DNA from: an uncultured Terracidiphilus sp.
GTDB lineage: Bacteria; Acidobacteriota; Terriglobia; Terriglobales; Acidobacteriaceae
Assembly (NCBI GenBank): GCA_964419175.1
Contig: CAYQOQ010000004.1
Coordinates: 115-64,114, forward strand
DNA length: 64,000 bases
Reading direction: 5' to 3'
Position 1 is the stretch's first letter. Each line of letters starts with the position of its first letter. The notes under the pieces are model-generated. The model saw nothing but the letters and a program-made list of their open reading frames with translations, had not been told where the DNA came from and searched no databases. Shown in pieces: positions 1-20,463 of this stretch. A program made the position numbers and the translations under genes.

Positions 1-407
1 CCACCCATGGTTCCGGCCCACACATCGCCGGTGCGCTTGTCCAGGGCCAGCGAGAGCACGGCTCGATGCGCAAGTCCGTCCTTGGTCGTGTAGGTCTTCC
101 ACGAGTGATTTTCGTAAACTGCGAGGCCATTCTCCGTGCCCGCCCAAACGCGATCTCCGTCCACCAGCACAGCGAAAACGTGATTGTCTGGCAGACCGTT
201 GCTGGTCGTAAAGTTCTCAAAGCGGAACCGTGGCATGCTCGGCGCCGACGATGCGGCTTGTGCGTGAACAGGTCTTGTGGAAGCTGCCTCCGCACTCTTC
301 GCGGGTAGTGTTTGTGCGCATGTCGCCAGCGGATTGGCCAGCCCCCAGCAGGCCACAACAAACGGCATTGCAATCGCCCACATCGTCTTGTGCACGCTCT
401 TCATCAT
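1..407 (-). CDS. Exported two-component-regulator propeller (Reg_prop) repeat protein, 5' part only (runs off the window edge)
   Basis: Not in the ORF track; translated by hand. ATG at 407 overlaps the TGA of the upstream gene (ATGA). Reads MMKSVHKTMWAIAMPFVVACWGLA...RFENFTTSNGLPDNHVFAVLVDGDRVWAGTENGLAVY...YTTKDGLAHRAVLSLALDKRTGDVWAGTMG: a signal peptide followed by typical Reg_prop repeats. Confidence 0.85.
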   Translation of the reverse strand, partial: MMKSVHKTMWAIAMPFVVACWGLANPLATCAQTLPAKSAEAASTRPVHAQAASSAPSMPRFRFENFTTSNGLPDNHVFAVLVDGDRVWAGTENGLAVYENHSWKTYTTKDGLAHRAVLSLALDKRTGDVWAGTMG

Positions 408-2329
408 TGCGTCCTCAGATATTCGATCAAGTCGTTGAGTTCGTCTTTCGTCAGGTCGTTGGTGCGGCCGTGTTTATCTTCAGGGTTGTAGACGGTCCAT
501 ATCTCTTCGAGCGTGCGCGCCGAACCGTCGTGCAGATAGGGCGCGGTAAGCGCAATGTTGATCAGTTGCGGCGTGTCAAAAGGACCGGGATTATCGGTCG
601 GCTTCTTCGTGCCAACATCGAAAGACTTCTGGCTTGTACCCTTCGGGCCGCTATGGCAATAGGAGCAGCGGTTGACCTCGGAAATCGGCTTGCCGAACCT
701 ATCGACAGCGCGCTCAAACAGCGCCTTGCCGCGTTCCTGACTCGGCGTCAGCTCGTAGCCCCGCAAGCGCCAGCGATTGGGCCGTGAATGCAGACTTCGC
801 ATGTAGAGTGTCAGATCCGCGAGGGTGTAATCGCCATACTGCTCCGAGCGCCAGAAATACATTTCCGTGCGCGGTCCACATTCGGTGGGAATGTTTGGAT
901 TGCCGCCATTCCACTTGTAGGGCTCAGTACCTTTGATGTCCTCGATCAGCCGGTTGTCCACGATGTCGCGGCCAAATCCGTCTGGCTCGAGGTCCCACGT
1001 GAGCCCATCGAAAGTGGAATCGATGTGGCAGCTTGAGCAGCTGATCTGCCCCTGAAATGAATAACGCGCTGTATAGAAGGTCTGTTCTCCGCGGCGCATC
1101 GCGCTCACAACTTTTGGCCCATCGAGCGAAATGGTAGAAGCAACACGGTTCGTACGAGTGTCGATGACGCTGATCGTGTCTTCGAGGCGGTTGGCAACAA
1201 ACAATCTGCGGCCATCACGGCTAAGTGCCAGGCCACGCGGATTGTGCCCAACCGCAATGCGCGCCATGATGTAATTCGCGCCGGCTGAAAGGTCTTGCGC
1301 AAAAGACCCGGAAGCTGGGCGCGGGTGCGTATTCACAAAGCGAAGTAATCGCGGTACGTCGATGGCGAGCACGCATTCCGACCCGCCGACCGTAACGTAG
1401 AGTCGAGATTTGTCCGTTGAAATCGCCACACCGAAGGGTTGCGAGGCGTAGCGTTCCAGCTCGTCCAGCGGAACTTCGACAGGCTTGCCTACATCGGCGC
1501 CGAAAAGTGTGAGGGTATACGCAAATGCGCCGCCGTGCTCAAGATGAGCAAGCGGAACCAGATTCTTTGGGTGGTACTCTGCCACTGCACCCAGCCGTCC
1601 ATCGTCCGAGAGTGCAAGGTGGAAGACGCCGGCGATGGCAGGAAGAGGAATTCGCTCGACAACGATGGCCCGCTTCACATCGATCACAGTAATCTCGGAC
1701 TCTGGAGCCGTGCGATGCGGTGTCGCGTTGGGATAGACGTGTGTAGCGTAGATGCGGCTGCCGTCGGGCGAAAGCGTAAGGTAGCTGGAGCCACGCCCGG
1801 CAAGCAGGCGCTTCTTTTCAACACCGGTTCTGGCATCGAGTACAGCCACGTCGTTTGAGATGCGATTCGCAACAAAAAGCTGGTTGCCTTCGCGATCTTC
1901 GACAACCCCGGACGGCTCCGCGCCAACGTTCCATGTTGCAACCACGGCCAGCGTTCGCGTATCGATAACCGACAGAGTATCGTCCCAGGAGTTGGTCACA
2001 AAAAGTCGGTCGCCATTAGAGGAAAGCGCCATGCCGCGCGGTGTCCGCCCAACTGCGATCACCTTGACCGGTGCATAGTTGGCGCCGTCAAGGACGCGCA
2101 CTTCCTGGCTCTCCTGGCAGAGTACGTAGAGCCGCGAACCATCGGGCGAAACCAGAACTTCAAGCGGCGACACATACTCCAACGGGAGGGGCGAACCGGC
2201 ACGCTCATCTGCTCCGGCGATGCGGTTCAGCAACGGCAACAGCGCGATGGCCAGCAGAAGCATGGCCGCGACCGGCCCGCCTGTTCGGCACAAGATCATT
2301 GCGCACTGCTTTGCCGAGGCTCTCGTCAC
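404..2329 (-). CDS. YVTN/YncE beta-propeller fused to a di-heme cytochrome c (CCP/MauG-like) domain; HZS beta-gamma-like architecture
   Basis: N-terminal hydrophobic segment, repeated blades (VGRTPRGMALS, VGAEPSGVV, VGHNPRGLALS, LFVANRLEDTISVID), two CxxCH motifs (CSSCH, CSYCH) and the peroxidase-fold motif FDTPQLINIALTAPYLHDGSARTLEEI. Confidence 0.85.
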   Translation of the reverse strand: MTRASAKQCAMILCRTGGPVAAMLLLAIALLPLLNRIAGADERAGSPLPLEYVSPLEVLVSPDGSRLYVLCQESQEVRVLDGANYAPVKVIAVGRTPRGMALSSNGDRLFVTNSWDDTLSVIDTRTLAVVATWNVGAEPSGVVEDREGNQLFVANRISNDVAVLDARTGVEKKRLLAGRGSSYLTLSPDGSRIYATHVYPNATPHRTAPESEITVIDVKRAIVVERIPLPAIAGVFHLALSDDGRLGAVAEYHPKNLVPLAHLEHGGAFAYTLTLFGADVGKPVEVPLDELERYASQPFGVAISTDKSRLYVTVGGSECVLAIDVPRLLRFVNTHPRPASGSFAQDLSAGANYIMARIAVGHNPRGLALSRDGRRLFVANRLEDTISVIDTRTNRVASTISLDGPKVVSAMRRGEQTFYTARYSFQGQISCSSCHIDSTFDGLTWDLEPDGFGRDIVDNRLIEDIKGTEPYKWNGGNPNIPTECGPRTEMYFWRSEQYGDYTLADLTLYMRSLHSRPNRWRLRGYELTPSQERGKALFERAVDRFGKPISEVNRCSYCHSGPKGTSQKSFDVGTKKPTDNPGPFDTPQLINIALTAPYLHDGSARTLEEIWTVYNPEDKHGRTNDLTKDELNDLIEYLRTQ

Positions 2330-3984
2330 TTTGGCTCCTCAACGGTGAGAACGCGGTCCACGGCAAGCTTCTCCAGCGTTTGCTCGCGCCCACTTGGCCA
2401 GTGAACAACAACTTTGTCTACGGTGGCTGCCGATCCCAGTCCGAAGTGCAAACGGCTATCGTTCTGAGAAAGATAACCAGAACCCGCTACGCGCTCTGCT
2501 GTCTGCCGTTTGCCTGCGGAGAAAACCTCCACGCGCGCGCCAATGCCGTCGCGATTGCTCTTTGTACCCACCAGCTTGATTGCGATCCAGTGGCCGGCAT
2601 CCGTAGTGACATTTCGAAGCAGCGTGCCTTGGTCGCCGAGATTCACCAGATAAGCGTCGACCTTGCCATCATTGTCGTAATCGGCAAAGCAGGCGCCGCG
2701 GGCCACCGTGCGATTGCTCAACACCGGGCCAGCCTGGCGTGAAACGTCCTCAAATTTTCCGTTTCCAAGTCCGCGAAACAAAGTGTGTTCTTGCGGAATC
2801 AGGTGAATCAACCCGCCATGGAAAATCAGAATATCCGGTTGCCCATCGTTGTCGAAGTCGTAGACACCGGTTCCCCAGCTGACATATTGTGCGTTCGCTT
2901 GCGAAATGCCGTTGGAGGCGCCCACGTCTTCAAAGCTCTTCGTCCCCGTATTCCGTAGGAAACGGTTGTAGTGTCCATCGGTCACCCACAGGTCAAGCAG
3001 CCCGCGCCCTTCGAAGTCTGTAAAGACGGGCCCCATCGACGACGTTGCTTCGCCATTCTGGCCAAAGGCCGTTTCGGTGTCGTTCGCAATCTCCTCGAAG
3101 GTCCCGTCGTGCTTGTTGTGGAAGAGAAAGTTTTCGGTGCGGTCATTGGCAACGTAGATATCGTCCCAACCGTCGTTGTCGAAGTCCGCGGCAGTTACTC
3201 CCATGGTGCGGCCGACACTTGCGCCGATGCCTGACTTCTCTGTCACGTCTGTAAATGTCCCGTTGCAGTTATTGTGAAACAACATGTTGGTTTCACCCGC
3301 GTAGTCAAGCGGCCCAGGGTAGTTATCCGCGGCGTAGAAGGCGCGGTAGCTGGGGTCGAATTTGACGTAGCGGCCCACAAACAGATCGAGACAACCGTCC
3401 TTGTCGTAATCGAGCCAGGTGGAACTGATCGCCCAGCCGTTCACCTTGATCCCAGCCTTTGCGGTCACATCGGTAAAATGGCCGTTGCCGTCGTTGTGAT
3501 AGAGAACGACCTTGCCGTATCCAGTAACCAGAAGGTCTTCAAAACCGTCGTTGTCGTAATCTCCCGCAGTGACGGCGACCGAGTACATGTCCGGATCAAG
3601 CCCGGACTGCTCGGTTACGTCAGTAAAATGTCCGTTCCCATCGTTGCGATAGAGATGGTTGTGGGGCAGTGAACTCGGCTTGTCCTTGAGGGGAAATGGA
3701 TGCATGGAATCGTCGAGCGGACGGCCGTTGACCACGTAAAGCGACTGCAGGCCTGAATTGTTGTAGTCCAACCAGACGCAGCCCGCGCCAGTTCCCTCGA
3801 GCAATGAGCCGAGTTGCCGTGAACCAAAGCTGTGAGTAAAGTGGATTCCCGCTTTGTTGGAAGCGTCTTCAAAGCGAATGACGGGCTGGTGCGGCGCCTG
3901 CGGTGCGGCTGCGGGTGCTTGTGCCACAGGACCTGTTCGCACCACGAAGAGCGTGCAAAGAATCAATAGAAAGACGCGCTTCAT
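2326..3984 (-). CDS. CRTAC1-family protein (FG-GAP repeats + ASPIC/UnbV domain)
   Basis: Signal peptide; repeats such as DYDNDGFEDLLV, DFDNDGWDDIYVAND and DYDNDGKVD; C-terminal SNRDGIGARV...GSGYLSQNDSRLHFGLG...VHWPSG. Confidence 0.9.
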   Translation of the reverse strand: MKRVFLLILCTLFVVRTGPVAQAPAAAPQAPHQPVIRFEDASNKAGIHFTHSFGSRQLGSLLEGTGAGCVWLDYNNSGLQSLYVVNGRPLDDSMHPFPLKDKPSSLPHNHLYRNDGNGHFTDVTEQSGLDPDMYSVAVTAGDYDNDGFEDLLVTGYGKVVLYHNDGNGHFTDVTAKAGIKVNGWAISSTWLDYDKDGCLDLFVGRYVKFDPSYRAFYAADNYPGPLDYAGETNMLFHNNCNGTFTDVTEKSGIGASVGRTMGVTAADFDNDGWDDIYVANDRTENFLFHNKHDGTFEEIANDTETAFGQNGEATSSMGPVFTDFEGRGLLDLWVTDGHYNRFLRNTGTKSFEDVGASNGISQANAQYVSWGTGVYDFDNDGQPDILIFHGGLIHLIPQEHTLFRGLGNGKFEDVSRQAGPVLSNRTVARGACFADYDNDGKVDAYLVNLGDQGTLLRNVTTDAGHWIAIKLVGTKSNRDGIGARVEVFSAGKRQTAERVAGSGYLSQNDSRLHFGLGSAATVDKVVVHWPSGREQTLEKLAVDRVLTVEEPK

Positions 3985-3985
3985 A

Positions 3986-5413
3986 TCACTTGCCTCCCGG
4001 CGCTGTGGTTTGCGATTGGGTAACGGCCTTCATGCCGGTCAGATCTACTGGGACGGTTGTCCGCAGCAGAACGGCCGGCACGCGGTTCTCTGACGCACGC
4101 TCGGGCCCCGTGTGGCAGCCGGTGCAGATGCGCTGTTCACCGCTGCGAATCCAGAACCATCCGTGCTCCTGGCGTACGACCGCGCCGCTTGCGTTGAGCA
4201 ATGCGAAGCGAATGGGCTTGTCCGCGGGAGTCTGCACAAAGAAAGAGCCATCGGCTTCCACCGGCGCAGTACCGTTTGCAACCACGTGGCCTTGCGAATC
4301 CAACGTCTCCAGCCGGATGGATGTGGGCGTTATCTTCAAATCGCCCTCGCGCGACAGGCGCGAATCGAGGGCAAGCAAGTTGGCGTAATTCCATGGATGC
4401 AGAGCGGAGGGATGATGATGCGGCCTCGTGCGCGGCGCAATCAGAACCGGCTCGACCAGATTCTCCCCGCTAATAGCAAGCACTGTTTGCTTCGAGATGG
4501 TAGCGGATTTCGCCGAACCCGGCTTCAGCAGCTCGATCGCATAGTGCGCACTGGGCAGCGTCCGCGCGCTTACCAGCCAATCTCCCAAAGCCGTCTCTGC
4601 AACTGCACCGGCGTATTCGGCTTGCGGCGCAACCACCGGGACTTCATGCGCGATGGGCGACGTAAAACGCGCAAGTGAACCTCCATGCGTAAAAACAACG
4701 TCGCCTGAGGCCAACTGCTTTCCGCCCCACCGCGCGCGCCCATGATCGCAACGGTACGATTCAACGCCTGAGCCATCGGTATAGACCAGGTAAAGCTCCG
4801 GTGTTGATCCCGCGCCAAGTGGGTAGTTGGCCTCAAACAAGATGCGGCCATCCTGCAGCACATCCAGGGGAATCGCACTCGAAGGAAAGTAGGAAATCGG
4901 AAGCAGCGTCGAACCTGCATTCGCCCAAATGCGGTCGAGAGCTGAAGCGTCTCTTTTGCCGGCAACTACGAGTTGAAAACCCGGGGCGTTTCGCAAAGCA
5001 TAAACAAACTGCCCGGCCGGCAAATAGTGAGGGCGAATGGCATCCGTCGGGCTGGCGATAAGCCTGCGCACGGAACCATCGGCAAGCGTTAGTTCCCAGA
5101 TTTGCCACGGATCGCCGGCGGCGCGCTTGCCTGCAAACAGCAGCGCCTTTCCATCAAACGAGACATCTGCGTCCGCGGTAGCGGCAAAGCCCTTGATCAA
5201 TGGCGCGGCTTTGCCCTCGTGAAGAAGTAACAGTTGCGCCCCGTCCGGGAAGCGTTCTTCTCCGCGCAAGGCAGCAAGCGGATGATAGATGGGCGCGGCG
5301 GTAACAACAACATCTACCTCGGGCGCATGCACGGCGCCAGGAGCGGACCCACATTTTGAAACCAGCATCGCAATCGCCGCGACCACAGATAGAGCCCGGA
5401 GCAACAACTTCAT
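3986..5413 (-). CDS. Hydrazine synthase alpha-subunit-like protein (TolB-like propeller + HZS-alpha middle domain, one c-type heme)
   Basis: Signal peptide; propeller segments ([30 protein letters not shown]); C-terminal [30 protein letters not shown]...[16 protein letters not shown], matching my recollection of the HZS-alpha middle-domain signature. Confidence 0.75.
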
Positions 5414-6360
5414 CCCACGGCCTCCAGGGGACAGCTTCCGGCATGGCCGTGCTCATCAGAGGTCTCTTCGCGCGCCGTGATACCGCGCAGCCTTATCCAT
5501 GGCTCAAGCGCAGCCATCATGGCTTCGAATTCCGCGAAATCCAGTGACTGGTCGCCGTCGCTCAAGGCTTTGTCGGGATTGGGATGCACCTCAACCAGCA
5601 AGCCATCCGACCCGGCGGCGATACCGATGCGCGCCAGCGCGGGAACCAGGTCGCGATGTCCGCATGCGTGGCTGGGATCGGCGATTACAGGAAGATGCGT
5701 AATCTGTTTCAGCAGCGCAATCCCGGCGGCATCGAAGGTATTGCGCAACGCTGTTTCAAAGGTGCGGATGCCGCGCTCGCACAGGATCACGTTGGGGTTG
5801 CCGTAGTCCAGAATCACCTGGGCTGAGCGCAGCAGATCGGCGATCGTTGCCACCATGCCGCGCTTCAGCAGAATGGGCCGTCCCGATCGCGCCACCGCCT
5901 CCAACAGCGAGACGTTCTCCATGCTGCGCGAGCCAACCTGCAGGATGTCGGCAAACTCGGCGACCACGGGAACGTCGCTCTCCGACATCACCTCGGTAAC
6001 GATGGCCAGCCCGGTTTCTTTGCGTGCGGCAACGAGCAGTTTGAGACCTTCAAGGCCCAACCCCTGGAAAGCATACGGTGAACTGCGAGGCTTGAAGGCG
6101 CCGCCGCGCAGCACGCGCGCCCCGGCACGCCGCACATGATGGGCAGTGGCCATCAGCTGTGGCTCGGATTCAACCGAGCATGGCCCTGCCATGGTGATGA
6201 ATTCGTCGCCCCCGATGGCGAAATCAAGCACTGGAACCACCGTCCGGCGGAGCCGTGCGCCGATCAGAACATCAGGGGTCTCGGCAAATCGTTCCTGCCA
6301 ACTTACACGCACCCGGTGCGCTCCATTCTGGGGAAGCGTCAGTGTAGCGCCTTCGCACAT
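5410..6360 (-). CDS. aroF: 3-deoxy-7-phosphoheptulonate (DAHP) synthase, class I-beta
   Basis: [46 protein letters not shown] and DPSH motifs. KPRS rather than KANRS argues for DAHP, not KDO8P, synthase. Confidence 0.9.
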
Positions 6361-6468
6361 CGGGACACATCAACCGAAAGGTGGAGATGTACAGGGACGC
6401 CGTGGGTGCTTTCCGCCCGTTTCCTATCGCTTAGCGAGGAATCCTGAAGAGCTACTCTCTGCAGCAAA

Positions 6469-11330: not shown

Positions 11331-11412
11331 TGCCATCGACCCCAATCACCCAGAATCTCGAACCAGAACAGAAAACACCAGTCTACTTGACTGCCCTTCC
11401 CGGCGCGCGTCG

Positions 11413-11733
11413 CTATCTCTTCAACTTCTCGCGGCACGAACGAAGGTAGGCTACCAGGTCTTTCACTTCGGCCGGTTCAAGATCCCCTGCAAATGGAGGC
11501 ATTTCATTGCCCCCGCGAAGAATCTGCTCCCGTATCTTGGTCTTCGTTAAAGTCCTGCCCACGCTGGAGAGATTCGGTCCCTTGTGGCCACCCGCGTTTT
11601 GAATGGCGTGGCAGTGCCGGCATCCGCTGGCGGCAAAGACCGCAGCGCCGCGCTCACGCTGACTCCGCGAAGACCCCAATGCGAGCGAACCGAATGATAG
11701 AAGTATGCAAATGACTGGAAGCCACAACCTCAT
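11413..11733 (-). CDS. Small mono-heme class I cytochrome c
   Basis: Signal peptide, CRHCH, GPNLS, distal Met in EMPPF; overlaps the stop of the upstream gene. Confidence 0.85.
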   Translation of the reverse strand: MRLWLPVICILLSFGSLALGSSRSQRERGAAVFAASGCRHCHAIQNAGGHKGPNLSSVGRTLTKTKIREQILRGGNEMPPFAGDLEPAEVKDLVAYLRSCREKLKR

Positions 11734-13955
11734 TGGCCGCTTCCTCCGCCGGCTTCAGCGTTCACGATCGCGCTATCTTTATGTACATGCCACGGCACAC
11801 TCTCCGCAGTCACTTCAGGATGCTTGCGCAAAAACTCGAGCGCATAAACATTGGCTGTCGGATCGTCCTTCTGGTCGGCAAAAGCCACGGCCTCCCGCGA
11901 GGCTTCCTTCTGCATTCCCAGCCGGCGGTACACGATGGAGAGAATGTAGTGCGCGGATAAGTCGTCGGGATCAATCGACTGCACCGTCTCGTACTCGGTG
12001 CGTGCCTCCTGATATTTATGCTGCTGATAAAACGAGAAGCCAAGCTCGCGGTGAGCGTCGCGCGAACGTGGAAACTGGGTGATTACTTCCAGCAAATCTG
12101 CGATCGCAGCGTCGGGATGGCCCTGGATGCGGTCAACCAATGCCAGATAGTAAAGCGCGCGTGCATTGTGCGGCGACAGCTTCAATGCCTGTTCCAGGTT
12201 GGTCCGCGAGGCGCCATAGCGCTGCCACGAGAAGTCTGCGATGGCGACGTTGGTGTAGGCGTCAGCGTAGTCCGGGCGCAACTGCGCCACATGTTCAAAG
12301 GCGCGTTCACTCTCCGCGTATTGTTGCGCATCGAGCAGGCCGATGCCGTAATTGTTCCACCGCATCCACAGCGGATTGTCCGCCGGATCGGGCGCCGTCG
12401 CTGGATCGGAGCCGAGCACCAGTGTTCGGGTGCGCGCAGCCATCTCCACCACGGGTTCGTCGTAGTGCTTGCCCATGGCAAAGTCGATGAAGTGCTGATT
12501 GAATCGGCGGTAATCCACCTTGGCGGTGACCGTAATCGGGCCCGTTGCGTCCTTGGGAATCCTGAACTCGTAGCGGACGATCTGCGAGCGGCCCGAGACG
12601 ATGCTGTTGTTATAGGCGATCACGCGCGTATCCCACACCTGGTGCAGATCGTTCAACTCGCCTTTCACATTAACGAGCCGGTTGGTAAAACTATGCGCGC
12701 TCGGATCGAGCGAGCCGTCAGACTGCAGGCCCCCGGAGTGCGTAAGCGTGCGCCCCGCGGCGTCCTTGGCCTCAAACTCCACCCAGCTCTCATAGAAATC
12801 GCGTTGCTCAGGGACGAGATTATGGGCGATCCCTTTGTTCTGGATCACAACGGTCACCGTGAGGTCGTCGCCGGGTGCAATTGTAAACGGCTCGTTACTC
12901 AGCGGCGCAAGGACTCCGCCGCCATTACGTTCCAGCGCAAAGATGTCTACGTTGAGAGCATTGTTGCGCAGGAAGGCGATCGTCTTTTCCATCTGCTGGT
13001 CGTAGCCGTAGTACTTTGACAGCAGCGTATTGGCGCCCAGCCAGCGATGCGAGGCCAGCTTGCCCGGCTCCGCGCCGTAATCGCGCGATGTGATCGGCTC
13101 CTGTTCCATGTGGCAGGTCTGGCAATTTGAGACCTTGTCCTTTACATAGAAAGGAAGCGGCGACTCCTTGCCGAATGAGGACTGCTGCCATTCGTCGTAA
13201 ACCGTGAAGGCGCGCTGCCACTTATAGTGATTCTCCTCGCGCGGCAGCGCCGCCTTGTGGCACGCGGCGCAGAACTCGCTGGTGCGATAAAAATCGCGCA
13301 TCACAGCCTTGGAATGACGATCGAGGTGGGCCAGGATCTCCTTGTCGGAGACTGGCCCATAGATCGGCTTGTCGTCGGCATCCACCAGCACCGCGGGCAC
13401 GCCCAGCACATAGCTTCCGGTACCGAGGGTCGTGACTTTCTGGATGGAGTGGCAAACGGAGCAAGTAACGCCATCATTGTCAAACTTGCGATCGATGGGT
13501 GAGGCGGCTGTCAGAGCGCCTGAAACCAGCGCGATTGGATTATGGCAGCCTTCGCAGTGCCGCGTATATTCAATGCCCCGCTCGCTGCTGAGCAGATTTA
13601 CGTTCTTCACGTACCAGGGATTGCGGAAGGCGTTGGCGTGAGCGGTCTGGCGCCACTCCGCGTGAGCTTGCTGATGGCAGTGCCCGCAGTACTCGGCCGA
13701 GGGAAAGCTCTTGGGATCGATGAATTCGCCGGTGTCGGTGGTTGCATTGGAGGGCAGGAACGGCCGGTCCGTGGCGAAGGGTAGTTTGTAATGTGCGGCA
13801 ACGCTTCTCGAATAGGCAGCGCGCTGTACCGCCGCATCGTCCGCCGCGTTCACTGTTGAAATGTGACCTGCGAAAAAGGGGCAGACAGCAGCCCCGGCAA
13901 GCAGACCGGCACCGAGCAAGCAAACGATTCGTAAGGCACTGCAGCGGGGAAGCAT
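11730..13955 (-). CDS. Penta-heme cytochrome c (c554-like) fused to C-terminal TPR repeats
   Basis: Five CxxCH motifs (CGHCH, CEGCH, CSVCH, CAACH, CQTCH) and C-terminal TPRs (RWNNYGIGLL, AHRELGFSFY). Start trimmed to the signal-peptide ATG; 13967 is an alternative. Confidence 0.85.
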   Translation of the reverse strand: MLPRCSALRIVCLLGAGLLAGAAVCPFFAGHISTVNAADDAAVQRAAYSRSVAAHYKLPFATDRPFLPSNATTDTGEFIDPKSFPSAEYCGHCHQQAHAEWRQTAHANAFRNPWYVKNVNLLSSERGIEYTRHCEGCHNPIALVSGALTAASPIDRKFDNDGVTCSVCHSIQKVTTLGTGSYVLGVPAVLVDADDKPIYGPVSDKEILAHLDRHSKAVMRDFYRTSEFCAACHKAALPREENHYKWQRAFTVYDEWQQSSFGKESPLPFYVKDKVSNCQTCHMEQEPITSRDYGAEPGKLASHRWLGANTLLSKYYGYDQQMEKTIAFLRNNALNVDIFALERNGGGVLAPLSNEPFTIAPGDDLTVTVVIQNKGIAHNLVPEQRDFYESWVEFEAKDAAGRTLTHSGGLQSDGSLDPSAHSFTNRLVNVKGELNDLHQVWDTRVIAYNNSIVSGRSQIVRYEFRIPKDATGPITVTAKVDYRRFNQHFIDFAMGKHYDEPVVEMAARTRTLVLGSDPATAPDPADNPLWMRWNNYGIGLLDAQQYAESERAFEHVAQLRPDYADAYTNVAIADFSWQRYGASRTNLEQALKLSPHNARALYYLALVDRIQGHPDAAIADLLEVITQFPRSRDAHRELGFSFYQQHKYQEARTEYETVQSIDPDDLSAHYILSIVYRRLGMQKEASREAVAFADQKDDPTANVYALEFLRKHPEVTAESVPWHVHKDSAIVNAEAGGGSGQ

Positions 13956-14442
13956 GGCGGTCACCATTCTATTAGTCCAGGGGACGGCCTGTATCCAGCC
14001 CAGGTTGAAGAGAAATCTCCATCGAAAGGTGTAGGCCCAGCCTGGATGAGTAACGACGGCGGTGGGCCGACTTCGAGTTTGAAAGCGAATCAACCAATTG
14101 AAGCCATCCACCTGCCCTACTGCGGAATCATCCTCCGGCAGTCGCTGGAGTTGAGATCTCTCAACCTATTGGATGAGAAGTCCATCCACATACCTGGCGA
14201 TGACAGCGGCGCAGTCGAACAGAGAGTATGGTGGTCATGATTCGTGTGGCCTTCCTGAGCCCCTTCTCGGGAAACCGCCTCTTGGATTTGGTCGGATTTT
14301 TCACTGCTTTCCACACCATCCCTTTCGATTAGCTCAAACCGAATCGAGAAGGTACGCAAGGTAAACACTTCTCCATGTGCAGAGCACTGTCCTTTGCAGC
14401 GACGACATTTGCATCCTTTAGAAGGCCCACCGAGGAGTTCCC

Positions 14443-17400
14443 ATGATCGGAAGATTGCCAGTCATTCTCGTCTGTATCTTTGCCACTGTCGCAGCGACTC
14501 ACGCGCAGAGCAATTACGCAGTTGTACGTGGATCGATTCTGGACCCGCAGCACCGCCCGATTGTCGGCGCGCAGGTTCAAATCCTCTCCAGCGAAACGGG
14601 CGCCGTCCGCGCAGTCATTTCCGATGGATCAGGACTCTATGAGATTGCCGGATTGCGTCCGGGCGAGTACAAGCTCACGGTGGAGCACTCCGGATTCAAG
14701 CAGGCCACCCATGCGGTCAACCTGGAAGTCGGCCAGCAGGCCACTCTCGACCTGCAATTGAGCCTTGGCTCCGACAATCAGACTGTCACGGTTCAGGCCT
14801 GGGGCGACCTACTCAAGACTCAGGATCCGAGCGTGGGCGAGGTGGTGGATCAACGCTCAGTGGATTCGCTCCCGTTGAATGGCCGAATGTTGATCGACCT
14901 GGTGCTGACCGTTCCAGGAGCGCACATAAGCCACGGCGCCGCGGCCGGTGACATGAATTCTCTCTATTGGAGACCGGGGCAGCGATCGGCAGTGAGCATC
15001 GGCGGAAGCCGCCCCAACGCGAACTACTTTCTGCTCGACGGGGCCACCAATACCGACCCCACGTTCAGCACTCAGAACCTCAGTCCATCGCCCGACGCCG
15101 TTCAGGAGTTCCAGGTGGAGACCGGCAGTTATTCTGCTGAAATGGGCGGCGCCGGCGGCGGACAGATCAACATCGTCACCCGCTCCGGGTCCAGTCATTT
15201 CCACGGAACTGCCTATGAGTTCCTGCGCAACGGCGCCATGGATGCTCACTCCTTCAACCAGATGGGCTCATCGAATTTCCTTGTCCAGAATAACTTTGGC
15301 GCATCGTTCGGCGGTCCGGTCAAGCGCAATCAAAAGACCTTCTTTTTCTTGAATTACGAAGCCCTGCGGCACGTTGAGATCGATGCAATGGTTGATACCG
15401 TGCCAACCGCACTCGAAGACTCCGGCGACTTCAGCCAAAGCGGCGTTGACATTTACGATCCGAGCACCACAACCGCGAATTCCGGCTATAACCCCAACCT
15501 GCCCACCAGCCTGTCAAATCCCCAATTCATCCGCCAGCAGTTCGTTTACAACGGCGTGAAGAATGTGATTCCGCCTTCGCGCCTGACCAAGGCAGCCTCA
15601 ATCATGCTGAATCAATACACGCCACTGCCGAACACCATGGACATGGGCAGCATGACCATGATGGGGCAGCCAACCGTAGTAGGCGCCGGCAACGATGCCA
15701 ACAACTACATGGATACGCGCAAGGAGCGCATGACCGACAACCAGGGAACGGCACGCGTGGATCACAGTTTTGCCAACGGCGATACCGCCTTTTTCCGTTA
15801 CTCGGCCGCCAGCGAATACGGCTTTATGCCGGAGGGCCTGCCCGGTTTCGGTTTCTATCACGACAATCTCTCGCAGCAAGCTATCCTGGCCTGGACCAGA
15901 ATTCTTTCCCCGCACATGGTCAACATGGCGTCCGTGGCCATCTCGCGCCTGGTCATGACGCACACTACCGAGAGCGCCAACAAAAACGATATCGTCGATC
16001 AATTGGGCATTACCGGAACCGGTTTTGGAGGACCGGGCGCCTGGGGCGCGCCCTACTTCAATGTCCAGGGATATTCGCCCTTTGGCGACAACTATCTGGC
16101 CACGCCGATGAGCGCCTGGGACACCGTCATCGAAGGCCGGGACTCCCTGAACTGGCAAATCGGCCGCCATAGCACCAAGTTTGGCGGTGCTTACCAGAAG
16201 TTCATCTGGCCCATGTGGGGTTTCTTCCAGAATCGCGGCTACTACCAGTACACCAACGGCTACACTACCCAATACGCGCTTAACGACGGCAGCTCCGGAT
16301 CGGCCCTGGCAAGCTTCCTGCTGTCAATGCCGGCGGCGCGGCAGGGCCAGGTAGGGGTGCCGCAAATGCAATTGCGTCAGTGGTACGCCGACGGATTTGG
16401 CCAGGATGCCTGGAGAATAACCTCGACCACGACTCTCAGTTACGGCCTCCGCTACGAGTTCATGAGCCCTCTGGTCGATCTTGATTACACCAACAGCAAT
16501 CTGGACCTCTCCAGCGGCGTGCCCCAGGTCTTCATTGGCGGGCAGAACGGCTACCCGCGCGGACTGATGTATGCCAACCACACCAACTTCGCCCCTCGGC
16601 TCGGTCTGGCGCAGAGCTTCCCCAGGCTCGGCGTAGTGGCGCACATCGCCTACGGAATCTTCTACACGCCGGTAGACATGAACACCTGGTGCAACCAGCG
16701 CCACAACGTACCCTATGTCTTCCCTGAGACCGCGCAGAGCGACCCTTACATTCCCTCGATCACCACGCTGAACTTTCCCTCCCCCGTGCTCGGCACAACA
16801 GCCGTCAGCTTCACGTCGGTCCAGTTGCATGCAAAGGCTCAATACGTCCAGCAGTGGAGCGCCTCGCTTGAAAAGCAGTTGGGTGTCGAGACCACAATCG
16901 AGGTCGGCTATCTGGGCGCAGGCGGCTTCCACTTGCAGCGCTCCCACCTCATTAATAACGCGCAGCCCGGACCGGGCCTGATACAACCGCGCCGTCCGTT
17001 TCCAAAAATCAGCTTCGTCCCCAATACGGTTTTTCCCGCCGCCGTAGCCAGCACAATGACCAGTTCCACATTCCCCGCGACCACCATCAACCTGCTCGAG
17101 AACACCGCGCAAAGCTGGTACGACGCGGGCTACGTCAACGTGCGGCGCCGCGCCTCCAACCGCCTCAGCTTCCTGGCTAACTACACGTTCGCCAAGGCGC
17201 TTGAGAACGCTCCTGACTTCCGTTCGCCCATGTTCGAGGCAGCAACTCCACAGAACAACAACGACCTGAACGCGGAGAAGGGCCCCGGCTGCGATATTCG
17301 CCATCGCGTTGCCGTAAGCGCGGTCTATAGCCCGCCGGTTCTGGCAAAGAACAACCTCACTCGGGCTCTAACCCGCGATTGGCGCGGCTCCGTCGAGTAC

Positions 17401-17829
17401 CAGGTCCAAAGCGGTTTTCCCCTGACGATTTCCGTGTTTGGCGATACGGCTAATGCCGGAACCGTCGTTGGCGAGAATCCTATTCGCGCAAACTCGACGG
17501 GCCAGAAGATCTTCCCGTCGGGCACCCGGAACTCGACCACATGGTTCAACCCGGGCGCATTCGCTGCGCCGCCTGCCTACACTTTCGGGAATGTCGGTCG
17601 GAACTCGGTCTATGGCCCCAGCTTGCAGACCATGGATCTTGCATTGGTCCGGAGTTTCAGCCTGGCAGAGAAGTCCAGATTTGAGACCCGCGCCGAGTTC
17701 TTCAACGGTCTCAACCACACCAACCTTGGAACTCCAAACCGCTTCGTGAACACATCCAGCTTTGGCAGCATCACCGAGGTTGCCACGCCTGGACGGGAGA
17801 TCCAGTTAAGCGCCCGTCTCTCGTTTTAG
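14443..17829 (+). CDS. TonB-dependent receptor (carboxypeptidase-regulatory-like N-domain, Oar-like type)
   Basis: Signal peptide, LPLNGR plug motif, DAVQEFQVETGSYSAEMG, GTAYEFLRN, and C-terminal GREIQLSARLSF ending in Phe. Confidence 0.92.
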   Translation: MIGRLPVILVCIFATVAATHAQSNYAVVRGSILDPQHRPIVGAQVQILSSETGAVRAVISDGSGLYEIAGLRPGEYKLTVEHSGFKQATHAVNLEVGQQATLDLQLSLGSDNQTVTVQAWGDLLKTQDPSVGEVVDQRSVDSLPLNGRMLIDLVLTVPGAHISHGAAAGDMNSLYWRPGQRSAVSIGGSRPNANYFLLDGATNTDPTFSTQNLSPSPDAVQEFQVETGSYSAEMGGAGGGQINIVTRSGSSHFHGTAYEFLRNGAMDAHSFNQMGSSNFLVQNNFGASFGGPVKRNQKTFFFLNYEALRHVEIDAMVDTVPTALEDSGDFSQSGVDIYDPSTTTANSGYNPNLPTSLSNPQFIRQQFVYNGVKNVIPPSRLTKAASIMLNQYTPLPNTMDMGSMTMMGQPTVVGAGNDANNYMDTRKERMTDNQGTARVDHSFANGDTAFFRYSAASEYGFMPEGLPGFGFYHDNLSQQAILAWTRILSPHMVNMASVAISRLVMTHTTESANKNDIVDQLGITGTGFGGPGAWGAPYFNVQGYSPFGDNYLATPMSAWDTVIEGRDSLNWQIGRHSTKFGGAYQKFIWPMWGFFQNRGYYQYTNGYTTQYALNDGSSGSALASFLLSMPAARQGQVGVPQMQLRQWYADGFGQDAWRITSTTTLSYGLRYEFMSPLVDLDYTNSNLDLSSGVPQVFIGGQNGYPRGLMYANHTNFAPRLGLAQSFPRLGVVAHIAYGIFYTPVDMNTWCNQRHNVPYVFPETAQSDPYIPSITTLNFPSPVLGTTAVSFTSVQLHAKAQYVQQWSASLEKQLGVETTIEVGYLGAGGFHLQRSHLINNAQPGPGLIQPRRPFPKISFVPNTVFPAAVASTMTSSTFPATTINLLENTAQSWYDAGYVNVRRRASNRLSFLANYTFAKALENAPDFRSPMFEAATPQNNNDLNAEKGPGCDIRHRVAVSAVYSPPVLAKNNLTRALTRDWRGSVEYQVQSGFPLTISVFGDTANAGTVVGENPIRANSTGQKIFPSGTRNSTTWFNPGAFAAPPAYTFGNVGRNSVYGPSLQTMDLALVRSFSLAEKSRFETRAEFFNGLNHTNLGTPNRFVNTSSFGSITEVATPGREIQLSARLSF

Positions 17830-17856
17830 GGAATTGCGCCAGGACTTCGAGGACTG

Positions 17857-17892
17857 CTTGAAGTTGCGCTCGTATCCCAGTGAGACTTCAAG
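17857..17892. terminator. Hairpin between convergent genes (possible bidirectional terminator)
   Basis: CTTGAAGT...ACTTCAAG inverted repeat between the TBDR stop and the CRTAC1 stop; long loop and no clear U-tract. Confidence 0.35.
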
Positions 17893-17926
17893 GAGAGTAG
17901 TTCTTTAGAGCCGGGGAACTCGCGTC

Positions 17927-19786
17927 TTACTTCCCCGATCCTTCGGCGAGATTGACGATGCGATCTACGCCGGGCATCGAAAAGTGCTCTACCTTTCCGT
18001 CGGGCCAGTGCACTTCGAGATCATCCACTTTGGTCGCCGGGCCTAGACCGAAATGCGGGCGCGGATCGCTGGTTGAAGCGTAGCTGCCGCCGCTCAGCAC
18101 GTCTCCGCGCTGCTTCATGCCATTCGCCGTCAGGTAGACAGTCGCGCCCACTGCATCGCGCGGGCTTTTTGGGCCACCAATGAGCTTGAGCTCGAGCCAG
18201 TGATTCTTGTCCGGTGAAACGTTACGCAGAATCACCGGATGACCATCCAGCACGTTAATCACTACATCCAGTTTTCCGTCGTTGAACAGGTCGCCCGCGG
18301 CCAATCCTCGTCCCTTGATGACGTCTGCCAGCCCCGAGCCTTCAACGGGTGGCACGGCCTCGAACTTCTTTCCGCCCATGTTGTGGAAGAGCATCGGCCG
18401 CTGTGCCCAGCTTGTGCCCCAGGGATGCTGGTCTACCTGCGGATAGACGTGTCCGTCTGCCATGATCAGGTCCTTCCAACCGTCGTTGTCATAGTCAAGG
18501 AACGCGTCGCCCCAGCCAAGAAACGGGACTGAAATCTCAGCGATGCCCAACTGGTAACTGATGTCCGTCAGGTTGGCATCGCCCTCGTTACGGTAGAGCG
18601 GCTTGTAATCGTCTGAGAAAGTCGTGTTGAAGATGTCGATCATGCCATTGTTTTCAAAATCGCCTGCCGCGATGCCCATGGACGCGGTCTCTCGTCCGGC
18701 CTCGTTCAGCGCATAGCCCGATGGATAGCTCGCGTCCTCGAATGTGCCGTCGCCTTTGTTCAGGTAAAGATAGTTGGGCGTGGAGTCGTCGGCTACCAGC
18801 AGATCCATCTTGCCGTCGTTATTGATATCGACGAACAGCGAACTCAGCCCATAGTAGCCGGGAGTGTCGGCAACGCCGGCCTTTTCGCTTACGTCTGTGA
18901 AGGTTCCATCGCCATTGTTGTGAAAGAGATGGTCGGGCTCGCCTTTGAGCCCTCTCGGCCCGCAATTCACCTGCACTCCGCGGAAGGTGCAGAATGTGTC
19001 GGGGACTCCGTTTTCACCACCCGACGGCAGGTTGTTGCGATCGAGGTGAACGTAGCCCGGCACGAACAGGTCCAGCCTTCCGTCGCCGTCGTAATCGCCC
19101 CACGTCGCTCCCGTGGACCAGTTGCCCAATTGCACCCCGGCTTTTTCCGCCACGTCGGTAAAAGTGCCGTCGTGGTTGTTGTGGAAGAGCCGGTTCTTGC
19201 CCCAGTTGGTGACGTAGATATCAGGCCAGCCGTCGTTGTCGTAGTCGGCGATCGCGACGCCGACTCCCCAGCGGTCGTTGGTTACGCCGGCCTTAGCCGC
19301 CACATCGGTGAAGGTTCCATCGTGGTTATTGTGGAAGAGCGCTGCATGAGGCGGCGTCTCCTTGCCATCCAGCGCATCGAACGTCGATCCATTCACCACG
19401 TAAATGTCAAGCCATCCATCGTTGTCGTAATCAATCAAGCCCACACCGGACCCATTGGTTTCGATAATGTATTTCTTTTCCGGTGAGCCCATCTTATGGC
19501 TCCAATGAGTCACCCCGGCTTTTTGCGAGATGTCGTCGAAGATGACGGGGCCGCTCTTCACAAAGCCGCCCGCAGTGATAGGGCGGCGCTGCTCATCGTA
19601 CTGAGCGGGATGCGCCGGGCCTGTATTCACGCCACCCTCTGAGGTTGCATGAGCACCTCCAGAGGGTTGTTCGGTCTGTTGCCCAGGGGCGGGCATTTGG
19701 GGATTTGTGACTTGCGCGGAAAGGCAAACAGCAGTACTTCCCGCCAGCAGTCCCAGAAGAGCGGCTGCGCGCAATGGCTCAAACAT
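17927..19786 (-). CDS. CRTAC1-family protein (FG-GAP + ASPIC/UnbV)
   Basis: Signal peptide, DYDNDGWLDIYVVNG repeats, GRGLAAGDLFNDG, SPRDAVGA...GGSYASTSDPRPHFGLG. Confidence 0.9.
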   Translation of the reverse strand: MFEPLRAAALLGLLAGSTAVCLSAQVTNPQMPAPGQQTEQPSGGAHATSEGGVNTGPAHPAQYDEQRRPITAGGFVKSGPVIFDDISQKAGVTHWSHKMGSPEKKYIIETNGSGVGLIDYDNDGWLDIYVVNGSTFDALDGKETPPHAALFHNNHDGTFTDVAAKAGVTNDRWGVGVAIADYDNDGWPDIYVTNWGKNRLFHNNHDGTFTDVAEKAGVQLGNWSTGATWGDYDGDGRLDLFVPGYVHLDRNNLPSGGENGVPDTFCTFRGVQVNCGPRGLKGEPDHLFHNNGDGTFTDVSEKAGVADTPGYYGLSSLFVDINNDGKMDLLVADDSTPNYLYLNKGDGTFEDASYPSGYALNEAGRETASMGIAAGDFENNGMIDIFNTTFSDDYKPLYRNEGDANLTDISYQLGIAEISVPFLGWGDAFLDYDNDGWKDLIMADGHVYPQVDQHPWGTSWAQRPMLFHNMGGKKFEAVPPVEGSGLADVIKGRGLAAGDLFNDGKLDVVINVLDGHPVILRNVSPDKNHWLELKLIGGPKSPRDAVGATVYLTANGMKQRGDVLSGGSYASTSDPRPHFGLGPATKVDDLEVHWPDGKVEHFSMPGVDRIVNLAEGSGK

Positions 19787-19792
19787 GCAGAG

Positions 19793-19820
19793 AGTATACG
19801 CGGGCCGAGATGCAATGCAA
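19793..19820 (-). promoter_or_regulatory. Putative sigma70 promoter giving a leaderless transcript
   Basis: TTGCAT-N16-TATACT on the minus strand; the -10 box ends 6 nt before the ATG at 19786 and no Shine-Dalgarno is present. Confidence 0.45.
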
Positions 19821-19938
19821 TATCAGTCAAAGGGTGGAGAAAGTATTCCCGCTATCCTGGCGAGGCGTAGATCTGAAGTCGCATCGTAACAATTGTGCTC
19901 TGATGAAAAAGTGAACCTTGCGCTCTTGGGCTTCGCTG

Positions 19939-20463
19939 TTATTCGCCACCCAACTTGTAAGGGATTCCAAACCGTCCAATCTGGATTAAAGCCTTCTCCT
20001 CCGGCGGCCAGATGTGCAGACTCTCCAATCGCGTTGAAGCCATGATCTTGTGCGCGTCCGTTGTTCCCACTAGAGCGCCCGTAGCCGCTAGATTGAAATG
20101 AACCCTGAGCGTGTCTCCCGCTTCCGCTCGCGTCCAGCCGAAAGCATACTCGCCCCGCTTCAGAGCGATGTCTCCGATGCGTACCGGTGCCTGCACAATC
20201 ATGTAATGCGAGTACTTCCCTTCTGCCGAGTATCCGGCGGTAATCAAGACAACTCCGGCGATAAAGTGGCCACGCTCATCCACAATGCCTGACGCGGTGC
20301 GCATCTCCGTCTCGATATGCTCATTCTCCACCGCAGCCCGCGACGGCAACACTGAGGCCAACTCCGCCTGTGTGGCCTGGCGCCACGCCGTCCGTTGTGC
20401 CGGCGCTCGCAGTGCAAGTAGCGATAAGACAACTCCGCACAAAACCGCACTTCTCGCGATCAT
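19939..20463 (-). CDS. Exported hypothetical protein (paralog of 24482..25000)
   Basis: Signal peptide; start overlaps the response-regulator stop; shares motifs (TAGYS, PVRIGDIALKRGEYAFG) with 24482..25000. Confidence 0.8.
   Translation of the reverse strand: MIARSAVLCGVVLSLLALRAPAQRTAWRQATQAELASVLPSRAAVENEHIETEMRTASGIVDERGHFIAGVVLITAGYSAEGKYSHYMIVQAPVRIGDIALKRGEYAFGWTRAEAGDTLRVHFNLAATGALVGTTDAHKIMASTRLESLHIWPPEEKALIQIGRFGIPYKLGGE

Follow-up and report, generated by a model that had tools for sequence, protein, structure and literature searches.

A conserved gene cluster for a probable hydrazine synthase-like heme complex in Acidobacteriaceae and distant bacterial clades

The 64,000-nucleotide stretch of DNA analyzed here (the window) comes from an uncultured Terracidiphilus sp. 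and is part of an 86.7-kb metagenome contig of the European Nucleotide Archive (ENA; the parent contig, L081). Among the genes at its left end (g0 to g8; Table 1), we assign two, g3 and g1, as distant homologs of the alpha subunit and of a beta-gamma fusion of hydrazine synthase (HZS), with a CRTAC1-type gene, g2, lying between them. We regard it as very likely that this region carries a conserved operon for an HZS-like heme complex that is not a hydrazine synthase. Our overall model, to which we give a probability of about 0.6, is that the cluster would specify a periplasmic enzyme complex with three hemes and two sites that works reductively; the reductive two-site mechanism in its specifics is a tentative proposal, held at rather less than even odds. 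What the window shows of this operon is its upstream two-thirds; the operon is long and belongs to a Terracidiphilus-like bacterium of the Acidobacteriaceae. Seven of the genes form a core, namely the alpha-like, CRTAC1, beta-gamma-like, Reg_prop propeller, Rid-like, DAHP synthase, and solute-binding protein (SBP) genes, and this core recurs in at least three bacterial phyla.

These results turn a scattering of distant homologs into a defined genetic system, in which a fixed set of partners travels with the family across phyla. Acidobacteriaceae-type organisms dominate peat and acid soils, and the cluster may specify a new periplasmic redox reaction for the turnover of nitrogen or carbon in peatlands. 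Its chemistry would also indicate what the ancestor of HZS did. Why a periplasmic heme operon should keep genes for a DAHP synthase and an unusual Rid protein is a specific puzzle in itself. Experiments on the gene set are feasible, since relatives of these genes occur in cultured strains: in the supplementary hit tables of a 2025 study in Genome Biol Evol (Hagglund et al.; PMC12758564), Terracidiphilus proteins are listed, and Granulicella sp. L46 and a Terracidiphilus RefSeq genome are included.

An initial annotation, made from the window alone, had proposed a dedicated import, redox, and scaffold system for which it knew of no assigned function. The large, conserved, mostly periplasmic heme/propeller operon that it described stands, and it remains the case that no function has been assigned by experiment. 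What it overlooked is the relationship of g3 and g1 to HZS, together with the fact that the arrangement of these genes had already been published (PMC12758564).

Homology of g1 and g3 to hydrazine synthase

In phmmer searches of the PDB, the g1 product matched HZS beta (5c2v_B; E = 2.3e-34) over the whole subunit, its residues 50-392 aligning to residues 10-350 of the 352-residue chain, and HZS gamma (5c2v_C; E = 5.4e-20); these matches outrank every peroxidase or MauG-type protein. The seven-bladed YVTN propeller of g1 (residues ~50-400) is confident in the AlphaFold2 (AF2) model, and the top Foldseek match is again 5c2v_B (TM 0.87 on the target), with generic YVTN propellers at 0.63. The closest NCBIfam family is hydrazine_BC (E = 2e-52), at 178 bits against a cut-off of 1250. 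Scores against the other equivalog cut-offs are 146/560 for hydrazine_beta, 77/625 for hydrazine_gamma, and 51/800 for hydrazine_alpha. The Pfam family CCP_MauG is matched by g1 at 38 bits (cut-off 25.6), with only profile positions 23-79 of 149 covered.

The evidence for g3 is concordant. Pfam HZS_alpha is matched at 55.1 bits (cut-off 26.6) over residues 381-434, and the sole sequence match in the PDB is HZS alpha (5c2v_A; E = 1.9e-14 with a family profile), in two stretches that cover a propeller blade and the CxxCH-bearing middle domain. For the AF2 model of g3, which was built with distant homologs (pLDDT 72.5), the first Foldseek match is likewise 5c2v_A (E = 2.6e-19, TMq 0.59), eleven orders of magnitude better than the next, TolB (1.5e-8). 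The protein is 475 amino acids long and ends 41 residues after its one CxxCH, at 430-434. The CxxCH motifs of g1 begin at residues 431 and 555. The nine motifs in four proteins that the initial annotation had counted are all present in the translations, the remainder lying in g7 (residue 38) and g8 (residues 142, 186, 217, 281, and 330).

Residue by residue, the resemblance to HZS is partial. Heme alphaI of HZS takes Tyr591 as its proximal ligand, and His587 of its CxxCH is diverted to a zinc ion (PMC12607021). The position of Tyr591 is occupied in g3 by Glu438, four residues after the CxxCH histidine; this glutamate is invariant among 37 close relatives, and across 40 diverse members of the alpha-like family the position holds Glu, Ala, Ser, or Lys, never Tyr. 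The C-terminal cytochrome c domain, which in HZS holds the bis-His heme alphaII, is missing; all 40 aligned members end where g3 does. Heme gammaI of HZS is bound by three cysteines, two from its CxxCH and Cys165, which forms a third thioether. In the di-heme domain of g1, C484 stands at the position of gammaCys165 and is invariant in 36 close relatives. W473 takes the place of gammaHis144, which lies between the hemes, a substitution that is invariant in all clades sampled, and T488 that of gammaAsp168, the distal residue that supplies protons in HZS. The aspartate is thus lost, with a glutamate adjacent (E489) in this clade and an alanine there in other clades. The histidine of the g1 "HG" motif, His620, aligns with a histidine of HZS gamma.

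Could the cluster nonetheless encode a cryptic but genuine HZS, making hydrazine from nitric oxide (NO) and ammonium outside the Brocadiia? Among solved structures, g3 has no relative but HZS, and HZS is also nearest to g1 in its di-heme domain and, by fold, in its propeller; all of the alpha, beta, and gamma modules are kept, and a cysteine sits at the position of the gammaI third thioether. We find the idea barely credible all the same. The cluster is not a hydrazine synthase because the HZS-defining residues fail: alphaTyr591 and the alphaII heme domain are missing, gammaHis144 has become tryptophan, and gammaAsp168 is lost. A true anammox-type HZS was rejected on these four features and on NCBIfam scores far below their cut-offs. 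No gene of the hydroxylamine oxidoreductase (HAO) or hydrazine dehydrogenase type was found among the window genes covered by general family scans, and PMC12758564 concludes likewise for these clades.

A second alternative makes g1 an oxidative rather than a reductive enzyme. Like MauG, MbnH, or a peroxidase, its di-heme center would use H2O2 or O2 and pass through a high-valent state, either detoxifying peroxide or oxidizing a residue or cofactor of g2 or g3 or a small organic substrate that the propellers and the SBP would present. We judge this unlikely. In its favor, g1 exceeds the Pfam CCP_MauG cut-off, has weak matches to the MbnH and MauG families of NCBIfam, and matches the MbnH-type di-heme enzyme 6e1c in the PDB (E = 1e-11). 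Heme-plus-propeller periplasmic amine dehydrogenases offer a precedent (1jju_B ranks 16th for g1 in Foldseek), and the alphaI-type Tyr/Zn site for HZS chemistry is absent. At the presumed position of the MauG tyrosine or peroxidase methionine ligand of the electron-transfer heme, the family appears to vary between Tyr and Phe across clades, although the aligned region falls in an unreliable AF2 domain; the histidine that aligns with HZS gamma is invariant, which would speak against a MauG-like enzyme. So do the sequence matches of g1, among which HZS gamma (5e-20) outranks all peroxidase and MauG-type structures (1e-11 at best), the cysteine kept in this clade at the HZS third-thioether position, and the heme-bearing alpha-like partner, which has no counterpart in MauG or MbnH systems. 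A further point in favor of an oxidative enzyme is the tryptophan at the gammaHis144 position, invariant across clades, which is the residue found there in bacterial cytochrome c peroxidases (CCPs) and MauG (PMC12758564).

In the reductive model that we prefer, g3 and g1, probably with g2, would form an HZS-like assembly in the periplasm that holds three c-type hemes. Soluble or multiheme cytochromes of the c type (g7 and g8 in this genome) would donate electrons to heme two of g1, which corresponds to gammaII, and the electrons would move by way of the conserved Trp473 to heme one, which corresponds to gammaI. There a small oxidized substrate would be reduced, candidates being NO, a hydroxylamine-type compound, or peroxide, and the product or a second substrate would then be handled at the heme of g3, which is predicted to be canonically His-ligated. 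The extra propellers and the orphan SBP may capture or present the substrate.

Several observations weigh against this model. Complex formation, heme content, the third thioether, and activity are all inferred from sequence. The di-heme domain of g1 has a pLDDT below 50 in the AF2 model and is unreliable there, so its active-site geometry is unreadable. The replacement of gammaHis144 by the tryptophan of peroxidases and MauG counts against it, as does the loss of gammaAsp168. The equivalent of gammaCys165 is an aspartate in three more distant loci (L084, L125, and L151), so the third-thioether cross-link is not essential across the family. The dedicated electron carriers g7 and g8 are missing from most versions of the cluster. 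Finally, the model gives no reason for the conservation of the DAHP synthase and the Rid-like protein across phyla.

Conservation of the cluster and its seven-gene core

A scan of GTDB species genomes found relatives of g1 on 384 contig stretches, and synteny was read from the best 80 of the 384. All 80 lie in species-level metagenome-assembled genomes (MAGs) of the Acidobacteriaceae type, a few genomes hold two copies, and the closest genomes are Terracidiphilus and Acidobacteriaceae MAGs of peat, fen, bog, and soil. Full flanks are available for 53 of the 80 loci, which form the basis of the per-gene counts. The initial annotation had let its proposal stand or fall, in part, by whether the gene order is conserved in any other genome. 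It is: the order g6-g5-g4-g3-g2-g1-g0-Rid-SBP is intact in 43/53 loci, and the core reappears in two other deep clades. Most of the other 10 lack one or two genes, usually g4 or g6, and two consist of a lone g1 paralog. Taken singly, g0 is present in 51/53 loci, the g2 position is conserved in 51/53, g5 is present in 48/53, g4 lies in the cluster in 47/53 (it is absent from the cluster in L028, L063, L064, and L073), and g6, the first gene of the conserved Acidobacteriaceae operon, is present in 47/53.

The lone beta-gamma-like paralog, which carries four hemes, occurs in three related genomes (L035, L069, and probably L061). In the first two (L035 4324-11806 and L069 4456-11782) it is a 793-residue protein with two N-terminal CxxCH motifs in addition to the usual two, and it directly follows genes for an NAD(P)H Fe-S flavoprotein, a Rieske protein, a cytochrome b, and a hexaheme cytochrome c. 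Open reading frames (ORFs) around the paralog were listed in both, with Pfam confirmation for L035. By analogy, this arrangement suggests a quinol-fed terminal reductase. Because the paralog follows an electron-transfer operon, it suggests further that the g1 family is an electron-accepting, reductive catalytic end module.

Beyond the Acidobacteriaceae, the short alpha-like family is large, with 2365 clusters at 50% identity at E <= 1e-3 and 1010 at E <= 1e-10. We examined two deep groups, whose alpha-like proteins are only 22-31% identical to g3. The first (group i) has named members among the Gemmatimonadota, Bacteroidota, Rhodothermales, and FCB-group bacteria. All five of its long contigs share the order CRTAC1-alpha-beta-gamma-propeller-Rid-SBP-DAHP synthase-SBP-TPR/FG-GAP/UnbV, with the alpha-like protein 22-30% identical to g3. 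The protein at the propeller position is 331-399 residues long and matches Reg_prop only in L086. The TPR/FG-GAP/UnbV protein that closes the cluster, a counterpart of g6, has ~1190 residues; in L084 it is split into parts of 580 and at least 621 residues. In the same contig (L084 12545-13471) the beta and gamma parts are encoded by separate genes, as in Kuenenia. A PDDEXK_3-family gene lies between the alpha-like and beta-gamma-like genes of the FCB-type cluster of L085 (11403-11849) and is probably a mobile or selfish insertion.

The second (group ii) consists of JGI metagenome loci whose alpha-like protein is ~30% identical to g3. Among the 22 loci with enough flank, the alpha-like, beta-gamma-like, Reg_prop propeller, and SBP genes are each found in 22, the CRTAC1 and Rid-like genes each in 21, and the DAHP synthase gene in 18; the order alpha-CRTAC1-beta-gamma-Reg_prop-Rid-DAHP synthase-SBP is common to 17/22. 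Directly upstream of the cluster, on the same strand, 17 group-ii loci carry a gene for an Fnr/Crp-type regulator with the N terminus "MGPxCxDCP...GC" (L087-L125 and others, ~0.4-1.3 kb before the alpha-like gene, e.g., L110 2962-3711), which hints at control by oxygen, redox state, or NO in this group. In 10 group-ii loci (L114, L122, L127-L131, L133, L135, and L138; e.g., L128 736-2199) a TRZ/ATZ amidohydrolase gene of the deaminase type lies upstream of the alpha-like gene. The g5 amidase is absent from both groups, and L085 has an asparagine synthase gene upstream instead. Amidase, TRZ/ATZ protein, and asparagine synthase may point to a repeated demand for the chemistry of amides or amidines, or the pattern may be coincidental.

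To the seven-gene core the Acidobacteriaceae add g6 and g5, of which the amidase is clade-specific, and g7/g8, g9, and g10 are facultative neighbors. The two cytoplasmic products recognized in the initial annotation are indeed cytoplasmic by our prediction, and they can now be named from Pfam and NCBIfam matches. By its scores, g4 is assigned as a bona fide type I-beta DAHP synthase: it reaches 385.5 bits against NCBIfam NF006421 (cut-off 335) and 350 bits against TIGR01361 (cut-off 267.75), its translation shows the "GPCSVES" metal-site region, and the ortholog in L086 scores 431 bits. The g5 product is an amidase-signature amidase (Pfam Amidase, E = 9e-100) that falls under every NCBIfam equivalog cut-off and so receives no specific assignment.

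The Rid-like protein, expected in the cytoplasm, is atypical. Arg105 is the catalytic residue of RidA, and where RidA reads "PAR" the Rid-like proteins of the window's organism, L084, and L086 read "PAS," with serine at the Arg105 position. The N-terminal motif "VLNEA(F/Y)xYxKPSS" is common to clusters across phyla. At 48.9 bits against TIGR00004 (cut-off 106), the protein misses this and every other Rid cut-off; it also has a weak match to FkbO/Hyg5 chorismatases, in their C-terminal domain (27-42 bits, cut-off 325). Taken with the DAHP synthase next to it in the gene set, that match is a mere lead, read from sequence, toward shikimate-pathway chemistry.

These two proteins might be thought housekeeping enzymes that, with the amidase, make the cluster a mosaic of unrelated genes and no single pathway. 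That the DAHP synthase is a normal biosynthetic enzyme, above its equivalog-domain cut-off, fits such a mosaic, as do the loss of g4 from the cluster in the four loci named above, the ~110-156-nt gap between g5 and g4, and the clade-specific amidase. We hold it to be highly improbable, and for the DAHP synthase and Rid-like genes the sequence comparisons largely refute it. Both genes stay in the cluster in three deep clades while their position shifts (the DAHP synthase gene is in 5/5 group-i contigs), the end of g4 shares 4 nt with the beginning of g3, and the N-terminal motif and serine of the Rid-like protein are common across phyla. Because their membership persists across three deep clades, the DAHP synthase and the Rid-like protein are integral partners, not hitch-hikers.

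A further possibility is that the core is a periplasmic enzyme system, spread over several phyla, that shares its ancestry with HZS and carries out new nitrogen chemistry in heterotrophs of soil, peat, and sediment. We think this improbable. For example, the gammaI-like heme might reduce NO or a hydroxylamine-type compound, with amine coupling or complete conversion to ammonium to follow, the SBP might deliver an amine or amino acid for N-N or N-O bond formation, and the DAHP synthase and Rid-like protein would supply a shikimate-derived co-substrate or mediator. The SBP has a Peripla_BP_6 fold (E = 5e-47), with 4gnr, 3hut, and 3td9 as its closest structures. It is nearest to binders of branched-chain or aromatic amino acids and also matches binders of lignin-derived aromatics (4ey3 and 3tx6). 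For the amidase, the Rid-like protein, and the SBP alike, the nearest relatives of known structure are generic and give no clue to a substrate.

The initial annotation had credited the cluster with its own TonB-dependent receptor (TBDR), and this bears on a different account of its purpose, modeled on polysaccharide-utilization loci. The receptor would import an organic substrate (for example a glycan, peptide, or piece of phenolic or humic material) for the heme complex to oxidize; the CRTAC1, Reg_prop, and SBP proteins would capture it, and the amidase, Rid-like protein, and DAHP synthase would handle or answer the product in the cytoplasm. A divergent TBDR gene (g9) and a CRTAC1 gene (g10) adjoin the cluster in the window, a SusC/SusD pair and a large FG-GAP/UnbV gene are divergent upstream in 2/5 group-i contigs, and TBDR genes lie near the cluster in four group-ii loci (L124, L152, L157, and L160). 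The affinities of the SBP with both amino-acid and lignin-aromatic binders, and a Reg_prop sensor kinase linked to the cluster in ~18/80 Acidobacteriaceae loci, fit such a scheme as well. We nevertheless consider it distinctly unlikely. Only 1/80 close relatives (L007) has a g9 ortholog at a distance of 10 kb or less, in most clusters no receptor gene is visible, and no permease or ATPase gene of the inner membrane, as would be expected beside the binding protein of a HAAT-family ABC transporter, adjoins the SBP genes in any of the three clades examined. TBDR genes are expected to be numerous in Acidobacteria generally, and the window alone carries three TonB-type receptor genes, g9 included, so the adjacency of g9 is weak evidence. 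We rejected a TBDR as an obligatory component on account of the sparse synteny. Because TBDR or SusC/SusD genes recur beside some of the distant clusters only, a receptor belonging to the cluster is possible but optional.

Gene layout and neighboring genes

Nine same-direction minus-strand ORFs occupy positions 1-14111 of the window (Table 1). The junctions described in the initial annotation are exact, with 4-nt overlaps at 407/404, 2329/2326, 5413/5410, 7878/7875, and 11733/11730 and a 1-nt gap at 3984/3986, and an independent gene call on the parent contig reproduced the gene starts. Larger gaps separate g5 from g4 (its length varying with the g4 start) and g7 from g6 (76 nt). From the overlaps and the synteny we infer that the cluster is co-transcribed. 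A hydrophobicity heuristic, used in place of a dedicated signal-peptide predictor, predicts g0, g1, g2, g3, g6, g7, and g8 to be exported and g4 and g5 to be cytoplasmic, in agreement with the seven exported and two cytoplasmic products first proposed. Pfam likewise bears out the two FG-GAP/UnbV proteins (g2 and g6) and the Reg_prop protein (g0; 27 bits, cut-off 20.4), and the divergent TBDR and convergent third CRTAC1 gene are g9 and g10.

Table 1. Features of the window and of the adjoining part of the parent contig (L081); locations of products are predictions.
Feature	Coordinates	Strand	Product or remark
g0	1-407 (5' part only, 135/399 codons)	minus	exported Reg_prop beta-propeller; runs past the window edge
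g0, complete	L081 11923-13122		399 aa; gene call on the parent contig
g1	404-2329	minus	exported HZS beta-gamma-like fusion: YVTN propeller and di-heme CCP/MauG/HZS-gamma-like domain
g2	2326-3984	minus	exported CRTAC1-type protein: six FG-GAP_3 repeats and UnbV_ASPIC (Pfam)
g3	3986-5413	minus	exported HZS alpha-like protein: N-terminal propeller and one-CxxCH middle domain
g4	5410-6312 (longest ORF starts at 6360)	minus	cytoplasmic type I-beta DAHP synthase; 300 aa in the gene call
g5	6469-7878	minus	cytoplasmic amidase-signature amidase (Pfam)
g6	7875-11336	minus	exported, 1153 aa: TPR, FG-GAP propeller, UnbV/ASPIC, and ~450 aa C-terminus without domain assignment
g7	11413-11733	minus	small exported mono-heme cytochrome c
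g8	11730-13967 (longest ORF to 14111)	minus	exported penta-heme cytochrome (c554/c7-like) with C-terminal TPR; 745 aa in the gene call
g9	14443-17829	plus	TonB-dependent-receptor-like outer-membrane protein, divergent from g8
g10	17927-19786	minus	exported third CRTAC1-type FG-GAP/UnbV protein, convergent with g9
g11, g12, g13	19939-24355 (g13, 21107-24355)	minus	small exported protein; response regulator; Reg_prop/Y_Y_Y-type sensor histidine kinase
Rhamnosidase region	26796-38613	minus	GH106 and GH78 alpha-L-rhamnosidases, TPR protein, TBDR-like barrel (34990-38613)
Third TBDR-like region	40923-46106	plus	third TBDR-like gene (40923-44408), then a 556-aa adenosine-deaminase-family protein
Fourth CRTAC1 gene	L081 16033-17802		CRTAC1-type FG-GAP/UnbV protein; 416-nt gap after the SBP gene

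The sequence beyond position 1, whose recovery the initial annotation had called for, is available on the parent contig. It contains the rest of g0, a Rid-family gene of 166 codons that begins with a 4-nt overlap, a gene for the 663-residue Peripla_BP_6 SBP, and a fourth CRTAC1 gene, so that the operon extends past the window edge by three or four genes. In four of the related loci (L001, L002, L004, and L005) the fourth CRTAC1 gene is succeeded by one for an aldehyde dehydrogenase.

Signals in the DNA itself were sparse. A promoter and terminator scan of positions 1-20000 gave the same counts as shuffled sequence (6 vs 6.2; 21 vs 19.0), the sigma-54 promoter pattern had fewer matches than expected by chance and none in intergenic regions, and an Rfam scan of positions 1-25000 at E <= 1 found no riboswitch or leader. 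The g5-g4 spacer is unconserved save for ~25 nt directly before g4 ("CCACCTTTCGGTTGA..." at window ~6313-6345, minus strand), which are conserved across 50 Acidobacteriaceae loci, have no Rfam match, and are probably the ribosome-binding or start region.

The two cytochrome genes do not belong to the unit as it was first drawn. Upstream of g6, where they stand in the window, g8-g7 occur in none of the ~50 other Acidobacteriaceae loci that show that position. The pair is a separate, movable module, usually accompanied by g10: the g10-g8-g7 module takes the place of g6 in L007 and L008 and is convergent and downstream in L058, L072, and L079. The g7 product matches Pfam Cytochrome_CBB3 (E = 1.6e-14), is likely an electron carrier and facultative neighbor, and adjoins the cluster in only 5/80 related genomes. 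The g8 product has Pfam Cytochrome_C554 and TPR matches alongside its five CxxCH motifs. Besides the cytochrome pair, g10 also travels with the two-component module g11-g13. In ~18/80 Acidobacteriaceae loci that module is no more than 10 kb away from the cluster, and it is a candidate regulator of the cluster in this clade. No family match was found for g11, and g12 and g13 were assigned by reading their translations, not by a family-library scan. The g0 product matches the periplasmic Reg_prop region of g13 at 24-27% identity (seen also in L059 and L077), and because of this match g0 and the sensor might recognize the same ligand.

The receptor gene g9 scores 654 bits against Pfam OMP_b-brl_4 and also matches CarboxypepD_reg, with a Plug match of 20.6 bits that is under the 23.9 cut-off. 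Two more TBDR-like genes are present in the window besides g9, and such genes are thus frequent in this genome.

Comparison with known systems

Four clades of HZS homologs outside anammox bacteria have been described (PMC12758564). According to that paper, the alpha gene lies upstream of a fused beta-gamma gene in clades I-III. A CRTAC1/FG-GAP gene separates the two in clades I and II and precedes them in clade III. The alpha proteins of clades II and III are without alphaII, TM-scores to HZS are 0.6-0.9, key residues are not conserved, and the proteins are judged not to be anammox enzymes. By that textual description, not by the tree or figures of the paper, the window belongs to clade II, with which it shares the order g3-g2-g1, a short alpha without alphaII (shorter by ~100 aa or more, as is g3), and a two-heme beta-gamma protein; the distant clusters share with clade III an extra beta-gamma heme motif, a CRTAC1 gene upstream, and two downstream SBP genes. 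For the hzs-like genes of Phycisphaerae MAGs, Dalcin Martins et al. 2023 (PMC10732223) suggest a broader enzyme family with other substrates. As far as the accessible text of these two papers goes, neither proposes a function for the HZS-like genes or mentions a DAHP synthase, a Rid-like protein, a Reg_prop propeller, or the TPR-FG-GAP giant as partners, and a term search of PMC12758564 found no mention of an amidase. Nor do these genes appear in a preprint on multiheme cytochromes from peat. We found no description of the wider conservation of the core in the literature on HZS-like or CRTAC1-family proteins, and to our knowledge the cross-phylum seven-gene core, including its DAHP synthase and arginine-less Rid protein, is undescribed.

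The operon of the g1 paralog (L035 and L069) is reminiscent of the Rieske/cytochrome b (R/b) complexes of anammox bacteria. The paralog differs in its two extra N-terminal hemes, lies outside the window, and is without alpha-like, CRTAC1, Rid-like, DAHP synthase, or SBP partners.

With di-heme CCPs and MauG/MbnH, g1 shares two c-type hemes in a CCP fold, a conserved inter-heme tryptophan, the "PY(L/F/M)HDG" region, a periplasmic location, and a supply of electrons from c-type cytochromes, the last two as predicted here. In contrast to those enzymes, g1 combines its di-heme domain with a YVTN propeller in one polypeptide, and its gene is linked to that of an alpha-like partner with a heme of its own. 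The domain also has a cysteine at the HZS cross-link position and is closer in sequence to HZS gamma than to any CCP, MauG, or MbnH structure.

The nearest known system is HZS itself. It was long thought to have no relatives, and the DAHP synthase, Rid-like protein, SBP, and extra propellers are not known from anammox hzs clusters. The proteins of the window share all three structural modules with the Kuenenia stuttgartiensis enzyme (5C2V): in alpha, a propeller and a middle domain that carries a heme; in beta, a propeller of seven blades; and in gamma, a CCP-like domain with two hemes. Also shared are the CxxCH motifs for hemes alphaI, gammaI, and gammaII, predicted signal peptides, and, in the window's clade, a cysteine at the third-thioether position of heme gammaI. 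The fusion of beta and gamma is shared with the HZS of Scalindua. The window's proteins differ in that g3 has 475 aa and HZS alpha ~800, without the alphaII heme or Tyr591 and, as judged from sequence, with no evidence for the His587-Zn site. In g1, gammaHis144 is replaced by Trp and gammaAsp168 is lost. Identity is ~15-26%, and NCBIfam scores are far below their cut-offs. The gene order is reversed, with alpha upstream of beta-gamma and a CRTAC1 gene between them, and the host is a heterotrophic acidobacterium, whereas HZS belongs to anammox planctomycetes.

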